From assembly GCA_016786925.1 (NCBI GenBank), contig JAEUTU010000129.1, forward strand, positions 17,792-81,791: a stretch of 64,000 nt of DNA, in the 5' to 3' direction. A model generated the notes under the pieces. It ran no database searches, had not been told where the DNA came from, and saw only the letters and a program-made list of their open reading frames with translations. Made by a program: the position numbers and the translations under genes. Numbering within the stretch: the first letter of the stretch is position 1; each line of letters begins with the position of its first letter. Positions 9,829 through 13,200 of the stretch are shown piece by piece. The DNA comes from Bacteroidia bacterium (GTDB taxonomy: Bacteria; Bacteroidota; Bacteroidia; 2-12-FULL-35-15).

Positions 9829-12800
9829 TTATCTGACTACTGTTACATGACCAATACGATACTGATTTCCTAATTTCTTATCTATAAAATCAACCTTCCA
9901 AACATATACCCCCAATTCTACCGGAGTACCCTTATATGTTCCATCCCAGCCTTCATAAATATCTGTTGTTTCAAATATTAATTCTCCCCAACGGTCAAAG
10001 ATCATCATTTTAAACTCATCCAAGCCAACACCATAAACGTTAAAACGGTCGTTTTTACCATTCTGTCCGGGTGTAAAGGCATTAGGTGCATAAAAAGTAC
10101 TTTCCGATTCAACTTCAATTACAACTTCAGCAGTATCGGTACATCCAACAGAATTGGTAACTATTTGAACAATTGTATATTCTCCATCGATCGGATAATT
10201 ATGAATAACTGATTGCCAATTGCAACCCTGCAATAGTTGACCATCACCAAAATACAATATACAGCTATCTGCATTTAACATCTGATTAGAAATCATATAA
10301 TTATTCATTTCAGTGCTATTTAGGACTTGAACGGTAATATCCGCCAAAGGAGAATCCAAAACAGTTACATAAGAATTTAAAGTCATAGTATCGGCACAGC
10401 CAATGGAATTATAGGCGATCAATGTTACGTTGTAGCTACCCTGAGTAAAATAAGTATTAATAGGATTTACAGATGATGAATTATTTCCATCTCCAAAGTT
10501 CCAGTTATAACTTGTTGCCCCAGTTGAAAAATTCGTAAATGCAGCATTCAAAGGTGCACAACCTGAAATTTCTCCTGCAAAAAATGCATCCGGATAATTG
10601 ATGGGATATATGCTTAATGAAGCTGTATCTGAACATCCGTTCTGATCAGAAACAGAGATAGTAAGAGTACTTGGCACAGCCGGAGTTAAGCTAGTAGAAA
10701 CAGTATTGCCTCCATTCGACCAGGAATAAGTAAAAGGACTTTGACCACTTGTAACTTGAGCTGAATAGATAGCTGATTGCCCCATACAGATCGAGTCCTG
10801 TCCAACAATACTAACTGATGGTCCTACCAAAACATTCACGGTAAAACTAAATGGCAAACTAGAGCACAAAGAATCTTCCACGATCAAGGTATATGTGCTA
10901 GAACTTAAGGGTGAAACAAGCAATGAATCATTCCCGGCAATTGCACTTCCATTCCAATAATAATTACCTCCACCTGTTCCCGTAAGAATAACTGTTTCAC
11001 CCGGACAAATAGAGGAATCACCAACTATTAAGGCCTGTGGAGCGGGGATAACGTCAATAAGCAATGAGTCGAAATATGTCCCACATGAATTTCCAGTTGA
11101 CAGATAATAATATGTATCAACTAAAGGGGTATCATTTACCACTGAAGAGGATGATGTAATTCCGCCTGACCAGATATAGTTTGATCCGCCTGATGCTGTA
11201 AGAACTAAATTTTGTCCAGAACAGATACTTGCTGGTCCGTTTATCAATGGAATAAGCATTGTATCAACATTTACCAATACTGTATCAAATCCGGAGCAAG
11301 TAGCATTACTCACTTCGATATAGTAATACGTAGAAGTCAACGGGCTAACAGTAATAGAAGAAGTAGAAGCCGTGACTCCTCCTGTCCAACTATACGTTAC
11401 CCCACCGGAAGCAGAAATCGTAACTGACTGCCCCAAGCAGATCGTCTGATCAGGACTAGCACTAATCGTTGGCGATAGATTCACTACAACTTGAATCGTA
11501 TCACTATCAACGCAGTTCCCATTAGACACTTGCAAGAAATAAGAAGTAGTTTGTGAAGGTGTAACAGTTATTATAGCCTGAGTACTTGTTAAACCACCTG
11601 TCCATGCAAACGAAGTACCTCCCGCACCTGTTAATGTAGTACTTTCTCCGGAACAAATATTCGTATTTCCCGAAATGGTTGCAAGAGGATTAGGATTAAC
11701 ATAAATTGTCAAGCTATCCATAACTTGACAACTTCCATTAGAAGCCAGTAAATAATATGTTGTTGTAACGCTTGGAGTAACCAAAACAGAATCATTTATA
11801 CTATTTACTCCTCCTCCGGACCAAGTATAATCGCTTGCTCCTGCTGCGTATAAGAGTGAACTCAGACCTTCGCAAATTGTATCTGAATCAGTATCTATGG
11901 TAATATTAAAAGAATTAGCTGTAAACTCACCATCAATTTGGTCGGGGAAAGCATCACCTATTCGATAAGTGGTTGTCCCTAAAAAAGGAGATGAAGTTGA
12001 TATTACATTAGGTGTTATTGAATTAGGGTTTGTAATACAAAAATAGGAACTTTGATTGTGCCCTTTATTAACATATATCTTCCCATCAAATGCCAATTCC
12101 ATAGCAAGAGAACCATTTATTGATATTGAGGATAAAAGATTCGAATTACTTACATTATATGACCCGCCCGCAATAACAGGACAAACGTATACTGCATTAG
12201 GAAAAAATGAGCTTCCGCCTTGCATTAAGTATAGATTGGATCCATCAGGTGAAAATTCGCAAGTAACAATCCCCCCGGCTGAGTTAGTATAATATCGCTC
12301 ATTTGATAACAATCCTGTATTAACGTCAAAATCAAAAATAGAGACCGCCTTATTTGAACTGCTGGACGAAAAAAGACAAACAGCCAAACGATCACCTTGT
12401 GAAGACATTTCTAAGGCAGTAACAACACCTGCTCCTGCATTATTTGTCAAATTTATCGTATAAACATTTGCTGTATTTATAATGCCTGTTGAGTTAATCT
12501 CCGAACGTCTAACAGTAATGAAACCGCTACTTTCTAATTTAGTTGTAAACAACCAATGCTTATCATTTGAACAATTAGATTGAGAAACGGAAAATCCCTC
12601 GCCAATCCTATCGTTAGAAATCAAAGTCACTGGAGTTGAAACTATTTTATTTACACCATCAACAATAACATACTTAACATCATCATTGGAATTTGAGCCG
12701 TATCTTGTTTTATAAATAAAGTAGTATTGACCTGGGAAGTTAGGTCTAGGACAAAAGCCATGTTCAATAACACTAGAAATCCTATTCACAGCAGCAACTT

Positions 12801-13200
12801 TACCAAATACTTCATCTAATCCTGTTGATGAATTTGGTGCAACGAAATAAACGGTATCACTTACAGACCCTGCAAAATCATTGTAAGCTGTTCGTGAAGC
12901 AGAAAACAAATAAAACAAAATATTGCCATTAGAATCCAATGCATTATTAATAACATCTTGAGATCCCATTGATGAAATAGAATTCACAGAAGAGCCTAAA
13001 TTTCTTGCAGCAACTAGAGGGACAGGACCATTAAAGTCAACTTCATAAAACTTAAGATTACCCGTGGTAAGAGAATAGAATGATCCACCAGAAGTTTGTT
13101 GAGAATTTCCAACAATCCATTTCGACAGCTGACCGTAGAAGGCTTGCGGCAGCAAACCAAATAATAGAATAGCTAACAAAGAAAAATATTTAAATCTCAT
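9829..13200 (-). CDS. Large secreted repeat adhesin with a T9SS type-B sorting domain (gliding-motility-associated C-terminal domain, TIGR04131-like), SprB-like architecture
   Basis: Signal peptide MRFKYFSLLAILLFGLLPQAFYGQ. About 430-aa N-terminal domain. Six tandem ~72-aa modules with the C.G....L.A.GG..Y.W.GG motif (aa 437-866). Two PKD-like modules (YNWNFGDGN). C-terminal ...YAPNAFTPGQNGKNDRFNVYGVGLDEFKMMIFDRWGELIFETTDIYEGWDGTYKGTPVELGVYVWKVDF...VR. Overlaps the upstream gene by 11 bp and lies 3 bp from the downstream gene. Confidence 0.85.
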   Translation of the reverse strand: MRFKYFSLLAILLFGLLPQAFYGQLSKWIVGNSQQTSGGSFYSLTTGNLKFYEVDFNGPVPLVAARNLGSSVNSISSMGSQDVINNALDSNGNILFYLFSASRTAYNDFAGSVSDTVYFVAPNSSTGLDEVFGKVAAVNRISSVIEHGFCPRPNFPGQYYFIYKTRYGSNSNDDVKYVIVDGVNKIVSTPVTLISNDRIGEGFSVSQSNCSNDKHWLFTTKLESSGFITVRRSEINSTGIINTANVYTINLTNNAGAGVVTALEMSSQGDRLAVCLFSSSSSNKAVSIFDFDVNTGLLSNERYYTNSAGGIVTCEFSPDGSNLYLMQGGSSFFPNAVYVCPVIAGGSYNVSNSNLLSSISINGSLAMELAFDGKIYVNKGHNQSSYFCITNPNSITPNVISTSSPFLGTTTYRIGDAFPDQIDGEFTANSFNITIDTDSDTICEGLSSLLYAAGASDYTWSGGGVNSINDSVLVTPSVTTTYYLLASNGSCQVMDSLTIYVNPNPLATISGNTNICSGESTTLTGAGGTSFAWTGGLTSTQAIITVTPSQTTSYFLQVSNGNCVDSDTIQVVVNLSPTISASPDQTICLGQSVTISASGGVTYSWTGGVTASTSSITVSPLTSTYYYIEVSNATCSGFDTVLVNVDTMLIPLINGPASICSGQNLVLTASGGSNYIWSGGITSSSSVVNDTPLVDTYYYLSTGNSCGTYFDSLLIDVIPAPQALIVGDSSICPGETVILTGTGGGNYYWNGSAIAGNDSLLVSPLSSSTYTLIVEDSLCSSLPFSFTVNVLVGPSVSIVGQDSICMGQSAIYSAQVTSGQSPFTYSWSNGGNTVSTSLTPAVPSTLTISVSDQNGCSDTASLSIYPINYPDAFFAGEISGCAPLNAAFTNFSTGATSYNWNFGDGNNSSSVNPINTYFTQGSYNVTLIAYNSIGCADTMTLNSYVTVLDSPLADITVQVLNSTEMNNYMISNQMLNADSCILYFGDGQLLQGCNWQSVIHNYPIDGEYTIVQIVTNSVGCTDTAEVVIEVESESTFYAPNAFTPGQNGKNDRFNVYGVGLDEFKMMIFDRWGELIFETTDIYEGWDGTYKGTPVELGVYVWKVDFIDKKLGNQYRIGHVTVVR
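9832..10098 (-). other. T9SS type-B C-terminal sorting domain of the adhesin (aa 1035-1123)
   Basis: PNAFTPxxNGxNDxF ... RWGELIFE ... GWDG ... GVYVWK signature. Confidence 0.8.
10603..11892 (-). repeat. Six tandem protein-level Ig-like/SprB-type repeat modules inside the adhesin CDS (diverged at DNA level)
   Basis: Module starts at about aa 442, 516, 588, 659, 731 and 804. Each has ICxGxS...L.A.GG..Y.W.GG and ends in a D(S/T)x-containing beta-strand (DSVLV, DSLTI, DTIQV, DTVLV, DSLLI, DSLLV, DTASL). Confidence 0.6.

Follow-up and report, generated by a model that had tools for sequence, protein, structure and literature searches.

The question raised by this locus is why a gene for a protein that is predicted to be exported by the secretion machinery known as type IX (T9SS) should lie between two core enzymes of a nonulosonic acid pathway. 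The gene, designated X, was found on the minus strand of a 64,000-nucleotide stretch of DNA from the metagenome-assembled genome of an uncultured Bacteroidia bacterium (GenBank assembly GCA_016786925.1, contig JAEUTU010000129.1, positions 17,792 to 81,791), referred to here as the window. Nonulosonic acids largely determine the identity of bacterial surfaces, and the only studied link between these sugars and proteins in the Bacteroidota is the general O-glycan of Tannerella; full-text searches for literature tying legionaminic acid (Leg) or other nonulosonic acids to the T9SS returned only the Tannerella work and reviews. The present analysis indicated, with little room for doubt, that X is a conserved and selected member of an operon for cytidine 5'-monophosphate-activated Leg (CMP-Leg), that its product has a propeller head, and that the gene belongs to a clade of uncultured Bacteroidia. 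As a T9SS cargo gene that is kept inside a nonulosonic acid operon and encodes a head of a new propeller family, X adds a new version to the known theme of glycosylation islands. Judging from comparative sequence analysis, a joint function of protein and sugar at the cell surface is very likely, and a role of X in carrying a Leg-containing glycan is proposed tentatively.

Gene X and the operon that contains it

The first-pass annotation of the window had proposed a T9SS type-B repeat protein at 9829-13200 inside an operon of 11 minus-strand genes, and both the open reading frame (ORF) and the domain matches agreed with this proposal. The gene and the modules of its product are as follows.

9829..13200, minus strand: gene X, a 1123-residue T9SS cargo protein with an ATG start (ORF call, translation, Pfam and NCBIfam matches, exact-sequence match)
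13132..13200, minus strand: Sec signal peptide, residues 1-23 (MRFKYFSLLAILLFGLLPQAFYG followed by Q), read from the sequence
11926..13131, minus strand: conserved head, residues ~24-425, a predicted 7-bladed beta-propeller
10597..11889, minus strand: stalk part 1, ~six Ig_7-like repeats of ~72 residues each, residues ~438-868 (Pfam Ig_7 and repeat pattern; boundaries approximate)
10096..10596, minus strand: stalk part 2, two PKD domains, residues ~869-1035 (PKD_4 in 2 stretches, the best at 883-947)
9832..10089, minus strand: T9SS type-B C-terminal sorting domain, residues 1038-1123 (PF13585 and TIGR04131)

The GenBank record for the protein, MBL7890823.1, carries the generic label 'gliding motility-associated C-terminal domain-containing protein'. 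The C-terminal domain (CTD) was recognised both by PF13585 CHU_C (49.8 bits against a cut-off of 27, residues 1038-1119) and by TIGR04131, the model for type B sorting in the T9SS (51.3 bits, cut-off 35), the matches reaching residue 1122, while the other Pfam matches were to PKD_4 (80.9 bits) and to Ig_7, 'CHU_C associated' (40.9 bits). Searches with hidden Markov models (HMMs) had been suggested by the first-pass annotation as a check, and TIGR04131, PKD_4, Ig_7 and CHU_C each scored above the cut-off of its model. By sequence, X is a genuine member of the type-B T9SS cargo class, its secretion being predicted. Gln24 is nearly invariant and the N-termini of the X homologues align; the cleavage site was placed by eye. 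A second T9SS cargo gene, encoding a type-A CTD with LVIVD and CarboxypepD_reg domains, is located at 51560-53977 in the window, which suggests that a T9SS is present in this genome.

The operon consists of 11 co-directional ORFs that extend along the minus strand from 20091 to 7470. In operon order, with X between the LegG and LegH genes, the other members are the following.

19426-20091, minus strand: weak GDSL-like protein, the first operon gene (Pfam, below the gathering score)
18458-19429 and 17514-18473, minus strand: two GFO/IDH/MocA oxidoreductases (Pfam)
16453-17445, minus strand: LegB 4,6-dehydratase (TIGR04180, a model of the hypothetical-equivalog class, 516.3 bits against a cut-off of 475)
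15318-16460, minus strand: LegC aminotransferase (TIGR04181, also a hypothetical-equivalog model, 562.7 bits against a cut-off of 420)
14296-15321, minus strand: LegI/NeuB synthase (TIGR03569, above cut-off)
13190..14314, minus strand: LegG/NeuC-type hydrolysing 2-epimerase (TIGR03568, 407 bits against a cut-off of 236)
9208-9825, minus strand: LegH/NeuD-family (NeuD/PglB) N-acetyltransferase (TIGR03570, above cut-off)
8159-9211, minus strand: PtmE-like protein with CBS and nucleotidyltransferase domains (PF00483 and CBS)
7470-8159, minus strand: LegF-like CMP-nonulosonate synthetase (PF02348)

The family models agreed with the flanks that had been read from the sequence at first pass, namely a dehydratase, an aminotransferase, NeuB and NeuC on one side of X and an acetyltransferase, a PtmE-like protein and NeuA on the other. 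The LegF-like synthetase scored 178.8 bits with TIGR03584 PseF, under the equivalog cut-off of 205.7, as expected for an enzyme that does not act on pseudaminic acid (Pse). By these matches the genes flanking X form a genuine operon of the CMP-Leg type that follows the route from guanosine diphosphate-N-acetylglucosamine (GDP-GlcNAc), the product being predicted.

The junctions of the operon, in order and with overlaps given as negative values, are -4, -16, +68, -8, -4, -19, -11, +3, -4 and -1 nt. The 11-bp start overlap with the NeuC-like gene and the 3-bp gap between the stop and the NeuD-like gene, both claimed previously, were borne out by the junction sequences: the ATG of X lies inside the last 11 nt of the upstream LegG/NeuC ORF (...AAAATGAGATTTAA...), while its TAA stop is followed by a 3-nt gap and then by the ATG of the LegH/NeuD ORF. 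Because of this overlap and this short gap, we infer that X is co-transcribed with the whole operon and translationally coupled. Of two scans for a separate promoter or terminator at the X junctions, both of which discriminate little, that for sigma-70-like sites performed at chance level (52 in the window against 54 expected) and placed none there, and that for the Bacteroidota-type pattern TTTG-N17-23-TAnnTTTG had one match in the window, far from X.

Conservation of the slot and of the propeller head

A word-index search with the head region of X gave 11 relatives in an index of 5.8 billion proteins. An HMM scan of 1.84 billion cluster representatives gave ~31 clusters at E<=1e-30 that cover the whole head, together with a more distant set of 1,788 clusters at E<=1e-3 that match residues ~135-425 only. 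In the near and distant sets alike, every sampled member in which a sorting domain could be recognised was T9SS cargo, the CTD being of type A in some and of type B in others. The X family is rare: it was present in only 3 of 185,579 GTDB species genomes, all from uncultured Bacteroidota.

The loci compared for synteny were those recovered through all available close X homologues, plus those from a single scan of the GTDB species genomes and a single scan of the Joint Genome Institute (JGI) metagenomes. After duplicates had been merged (L001 with L018, L002 with L019, L003/4/5 with L015, L006 with L007, and L016 with L020), there were 13 distinct X sequences, including that of the window, with pairwise identities of 36-89%, mostly 40-60%. 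All 13 lie directly after LegG/NeuC, and in every locus X begins either within the end of LegG or almost flush with it. LegH/NeuD is next wherever the contig continues, except in L016, where a 396-residue ORF on the opposite strand (12772-13962) takes the place of LegH after X and is followed by PtmE. The synteny comparison that the first-pass annotation had called for has therefore placed X in the same slot of orthologous Leg operons at 13 distinct loci, the one exception among the close homologues being P0006 in L008, which is outside any Leg locus.

The LegG-X-LegH slot is kept across at least three locus architectures, 1) that of the window, L001, L012, L014, L016 and L017, in which genes for a PF01973 protein, a conserved 244-residue protein (unk244) and an FkbM-type methyltransferase lie downstream, 2) that of L003 and L011, in which LegF is followed by Wzx, YfhO, a 2-oxoglutarate (2OG) oxygenase and a short-chain dehydrogenase/reductase (SDR), and 3) that of L006, with PIG-L and hexapeptide genes upstream and a PF07388 polysialyltransferase-like gene downstream. 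In L012, an insert of ~6 kb (1587-7818) separates LegC from LegI and leaves LegG-X-LegH untouched.

The composition of X (GC 0.35-0.385; GC at third codon positions 0.23-0.26) is comparable to that of LegG and LegH and typical of the window. When X was compared with its closest orthologue, in L017, the head had 77% identity, with a proportion of nonsynonymous differences (pN) of 0.138 and of synonymous differences (pS) of 0.70, the latter saturated, values in the range of LegI and PtmE. The stalk had diverged to 61% identity (pN 0.275, comparable to LegG) and the CTD was 92% identical. The first-pass annotation had reasoned that related operons without the gene, combined with an atypical composition, would point to a neutral insertion; instead the slot was found to be kept and the composition typical. 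A recent or neutral insertion was ruled out, as far as sequence tells, by the typical composition and the purifying selection, which resembles that on the enzymes and marks X as a conserved member of the operon. Together with the conservation of the slot in 13 loci, these properties lend good support to a functional partnership between X and the Leg pathway. The locus ties a Leg pathway genetically to just one family of secreted proteins, in a conserved one-to-one pairing. The association is robust; the organisms that carry X are uncultured.

The part of the protein that is conserved with the operon is not the Ig/PKD repeats but the N-terminal propeller, which the first-pass annotation had overlooked. 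The short homologues (518-534 residues) consist of the head and a type-A CTD only, while the long ones (660-1613 residues) have Ig_7, PKD or SprB repeats and a type-B CTD. By sequence, all that is constant across the family is the head, together with its place between the LegG and LegH genes; the stalk length, the type of CTD and the flanks vary.

Residues 1-437 of X had no Pfam or NCBIfam match, including none to PF10282 or a YVTN family, and a profile search of the PDB with the head gave only a Kelch match at chance level (E 0.75). An AlphaFold2 model built from ten family members (predicted local distance difference test 81.3, predicted template-modelling score 0.84) was all-beta with 27 strands, and the head is accordingly modelled as a 7-bladed beta-propeller of a family without prior annotation. 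A Foldseek search with this model returned only generic 7-bladed propellers at 7-14% identity and, since the matches are generic, no function was transferred. The lactonase-type and YVTN propellers (4qrj, BACUNI_04672; 6igb, PpgL; 1l0q, the Methanosarcina S-layer protein with YVTN and PKD domains; 8blw, BtuG) have the fold in common with the X head; at this level of identity none of their catalytic or ligand residues can be transferred. The head is, by sequence, outside every described family, and this newly defined domain has relatives on ~1,800 clusters of T9SS cargo.

There are 33 invariant columns in the head, many of them acidic residues. A glutamate recurs at one position of the blades (E130, E201, E264, E315 and E368); it was considered as a ligand or metal site and was not used as evidence, since its location in the ExSxDG strand-turn may be structural.

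Probable functional relationship of X to legionaminic acid

The genes next to the operon include several candidates for the use of CMP-Leg.

6601..7473, plus strand: 290-residue PF01973 (MptE-like/Maf_flag10/DUF115) protein, convergent with LegF (Pfam, 45.8 bits against a cut-off of 34.6)
5772-6506, minus strand: unk244, a conserved 244-residue protein with no assigned function that travels with the PF01973 gene (synteny)
5043-5768, minus strand: FkbM-type methyltransferase that travels with the PF01973 gene (Pfam)
20239-21720, plus strand: Wzx-type flippase, divergent from the Leg operon (PF01943, 31.8 bits)
21767-24295, minus strand: 842-residue multi-pass membrane protein of the YfhO family (PF09586, 36.5 bits against a cut-off of 28.5; hydropathy)

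The product of 6601..7473 is a candidate Leg transferase. PF01973 is the catalytic domain of Maf, which places Pse, Leg or N-acetylneuraminic acid (Neu5Ac) directly on flagellin Ser/Thr residues (bioRxiv 10.1101/2020.06.03.131540). The protein had no sequence match in the PDB, including the Maf structure 5mu5. Homologues were found in most X loci with enough flanking sequence (L001, L003, L011, L012, L014, L016, L017 and L018), and the FkbM and 244-residue genes accompany the PF01973 gene in L001, L012, L014, L016, L017 and L018. The LegF-Wzx-YfhO neighbourhood recurs in L003 (14042-18111), L011 (11880-15928) and L015, and a YfhO gene is located ~9 kb from X in L002 (1-882) and L006 (1-942). 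The YfhO-like protein of the window had no sequence match in the PDB, an NCBIfam match of 25 bits against a cut-off of 1400, and a weak family-level match to Streptococcus PgfM1, a protein with a role in adhesin glycosylation. The oligosaccharyltransferase (OTase) and ligase of Bacteroidota O-glycosylation were described as still undiscovered in a 2025 review (PMC12871550), and YfhO was predicted in silico to be the protein O-OTase of the phylum in a preprint of July 2026 (bioRxiv 10.64898/2026.07.27.740950). Like these predicted and known members of the YfhO family, which are glycosyltransferases of fold class C (GT-C), the window has a PF09586 protein, and it stands beside Wzx and the Leg operon. 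The Maf-type, Wzx and YfhO neighbours favour a Leg-glycosylated surface protein.

These considerations suggest the following scheme. X and the Leg enzymes would be co-expressed from one operon, so that X would be made whenever CMP-Leg is made. CMP-Leg would be used by the neighbouring PF01973 transferase, Leg would be placed on a lipid-linked glycan, the adjacent Wzx would flip the Leg-containing unit, and the adjacent YfhO-family protein would handle the flipped unit, with transfer in the periplasm. X, the only exported non-enzyme that the operon encodes, would cross the periplasm toward the T9SS and would carry the Leg-containing glycan to the cell surface as a principal glycoprotein. X would then be the T9SS counterpart of the flagellin gene in a flagellin glycosylation island, and of the Leg- or Pse-capped surface-layer (S-layer) glycoproteins of Tannerella. 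The role of X as a principal carrier is favoured tentatively, at rather less than an even chance; we infer the steps beyond export and co-expression.

Maf flagellin islands, in which a flagellin gene stands beside genes for Pse, Leg or Neu and the flagellin is the acceptor, occur in Campylobacter, Aeromonas, Clostridium and Geobacillus (bioRxiv 10.1101/2020.06.03.131540). They resemble the X locus in bringing together a surface-protein gene, nonulosonic acid genes and a PF01973 gene. The X locus has no flagellin and no full-length Maf and so is not such an island: the PF01973 protein has the core domain only, and X, unlike flagellin, is a cargo of Sec and the T9SS whose gene is embedded between two core pathway enzymes. 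A stricter version of the carrier proposal, a 'T9SS adhesin glycosylation island' in which the PF01973 enzyme, alone or with Wzx and YfhO, attaches Leg specifically to X, is considered improbable. Bacteroidota are not known to have flagella. If the stricter version were true, non-flagellated Bacteroidota would have re-used nonulosonic acid glycosylation of the flagellin type for a dedicated T9SS protein, and X would be a natural linked reporter substrate for finding the transferase steps of O-glycosylation in this phylum.

In Tannerella forsythia, the O-glycan of surface proteins ends in a cap derived from Leg or Pse (PMC5378307, PMC5420450), and T9SS cargo carries the nonulosonic acid-capped glycan at D(S/T)(A/I/L/V/M/T) (PMC5378307, PMC5420450, PMC8550257). 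The organism belongs to the same phylum and, like the X locus, has a Leg pathway of the GDP/PtmE type and a wzx gene beside the nonulosonic acid locus. In contrast to the X locus, no cargo gene interrupts the run of legF-ptmE-legG-legI (BFO_1063-1066), which are contiguous (PMC5378307), the transferase is of the GT-B/TagB-like type rather than PF01973, and the acceptors are many proteins encoded elsewhere rather than one encoded inside the operon.

The first-pass annotation had supported its link between X and Leg with two further arguments. At least 12 D(S/T)(A/I/L/V/M/T) sequons had been claimed, and a count with the same motif gave 14 D[ST][AILVMT], compared with 4.9 +/- 2.1 in 5000 shuffles. 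All but one (13/14) are in the repeat region, mostly in stalk part 1, and most fall in a C-x-D-[ST]-h-x-h-x-V motif on the last strand of the Ig_7/PKD modules that is kept in homologues. The only sequon-like motif conserved in the head is D115-T116-[VIT], present in 8/9 sequences at the start of a beta-strand. The count and the repeated module position hence stand; the weight placed on them does not, because the excess is generic to T9SS cargo. The sequons are compatible with O-glycosylation and are no evidence for a special relationship with Leg, and their enrichment was dropped as specific evidence for an acceptor after comparison with unrelated cargo and with the short homologues.

The other argument was the lack of a PorP/SprF-type neighbour. 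A scan of ORFs throughout the window turned up no gene of this type among those covered, and so the observation holds, but it lends no support, since orphan type-B substrates are already known: in Flavobacterium johnsoniae, 9/12 type-B substrates adjoin a sprF-like gene and 3 'orphans' share the shuttle Fjoh_1677 (PMC12618676). Like X, the orphans are TIGR04131/PF13585 cargo without an adjacent porP/sprF-like gene; their passenger domains are unrelated to those of X, they are not in sugar operons, and close homologues of X use a type-A CTD. What remains of the earlier claim is the functional partnership, which comparative genomics supports well; the arguments from sequons and from PorP/SprF carry little weight.

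Several observations weigh against X as a principal glycan carrier. The excess of sequons over shuffled sequences was 2.09x in the Leg-linked core family, and it was 1.97x when 85 unrelated T9SS cargo proteins were taken from the wider superfamily, none with a known Leg link. Stalkless homologues within Leg operons have 0-3 sequons, which is about the chance expectation, so that a dedicated acceptor defined by sequons is not a conserved property of the family, and the homologue P0017, whose context is outside the synteny sample, has none. A general O-glycosylation system would need no single acceptor gene in the sugar operon. The YfhO-like protein of the window matches only the C-terminal part of PF09586, and its proposed role as an OTase rests on the in-silico prediction of a preprint. 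The transferase gene differs between loci, a PF07388 alpha-2,8-polysialyltransferase-like gene replacing PF01973 beside LegF in L006 (14377-15462) and L007 (10842-11927); this also fits a Leg polysaccharide rather than a glycan on protein, and in the lineage concerned the gene points to a polymer that contains Leg. The close homologue P0006 of L008, outside any Leg locus, falls by sequence within the type-A group of in-operon forms. Finally, the head is highly conserved and many of its invariant residues are acidic, which would suit a module for binding or catalysis no less well than it would a passive carrier.

This last point leads to an alternative in which the head is a receptor or an enzyme for the Leg glycan, and the stalk and CTD only set the display distance and anchoring. 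The head might be a lectin or anchor that binds Leg-containing lipopolysaccharide (LPS), capsule or glycoprotein, for surface-layer attachment or self-recognition between cells, or else an enzyme at the surface by which this glycan is remodelled. The part conserved with the operon is indeed the head with its 33 invariant columns, rather than the stalk or the sequons; stalk length and type of CTD vary freely around it, and X stays in place while the type of transferase varies between loci. Against this stand the generic fold matches at 7-14% identity, the lack of any Pfam, NCBIfam or PDB sequence match to the head, the possibility that the recurring glutamate near the strand-A/turn motif (ExSxDG) is purely structural, and the ~1,800 related propeller heads that occur on T9SS cargo outside any Leg context. 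A receptor or enzyme is thought less probable than a carrier, though it is a substantial competitor.

Co-regulation and hitch-hiking are less likely, given the synteny and the selection. X might be an unrelated adhesin that is merely switched on and off jointly with the sugar, Leg being destined for LPS or capsule and there being no contact between protein and sugar. The tight packing of the operon, the PF07388 gene of L006/L007, which points to a polymer, and the occurrence of related heads outside Leg loci (two 25%-identical relatives, in addition to P0006, were found there) are all consistent with this. Co-regulation, however, rarely keeps one exact internal slot over an identity range of 36-89% and several surrounding rearrangements, and X lies between two core-pathway enzymes rather than at the edge of the operon, so that shared regulation as the whole explanation appears unlikely. 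Should the link prove to be of this kind, the locus would still be a clean case of operon-level coupling of two surface traits. The least probable reading, and a very unlikely one, is that X is a neutral hitch-hiker, inserted once in an ancestor and kept because its excision would break the operon. All of the loci do come from related uncultured Bacteroidia, and the Leg locus of T. forsythia has no such gene, from which it follows that X is not needed for Leg synthesis. Yet the head is under purifying selection as strong as that acting on LegI and PtmE, the CTD has kept 92% identity with its counterpart in L017, the composition is typical of the window, and the domain architecture has been remodelled while the slot was kept. 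Moreover, the X ORF is intact wherever the contig spans the gene (L001, L021 and L022 are cut at contig ends), and none of the 13 loci showed a pseudogenised or deleted X. The locus offers a compact system for testing how T9SS cargo is coupled to a surface glycan, with one sugar, one candidate set of transferases and one candidate partner.

Other genes of the window and of the related loci

Beside the YfhO gene of the window, at 24402-27143, are genes for a 2OG-Fe(II) oxygenase that weakly matches YhhC, a cyclophane-peptide oxygenase, for an SDR, and for a radical S-adenosylmethionine (SAM)/SPASM protein, which may form a cassette that modifies peptides or sugars; in L003, L011 and L015 the oxygenase and SDR also stand beside YfhO, with 78-85% conservation. 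A 658-residue protein of the PF10136 'site-specific recombinase' family (627 bits) is encoded at 27140-29116, ~3 kb beyond the glycosylation region. Further along the window are genes for a 722-residue protein that combines a PD40 propeller with OmpA (30941-33109) and for a 306-residue protein composed nearly entirely of canonical WD40 repeats of the eukaryote type (PF00400, 139 bits; 42322-43242), the latter beside a MacB/FtsX-type permease gene.

Among the related loci, the insert in L012 encodes a T9SS cargo protein in which a Peptidase_S74 domain was recognised, and also a two-component system of the histidine kinase/LytTR type. In L014 there is no LegB homologue between the GFO oxidoreductase and LegC (6574-6724), where it would be expected, and the rest of this locus has only a 28%-identical epimerase. 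An extra PglD-like acetyltransferase gene lies between LegC and LegI in L016 (7411-7827) and L011 (5085-5738). The gene for P0006, which has a type-A CTD (L008, 10001-12241), is directly downstream of a MukB/MksE-like condensin-type cluster.

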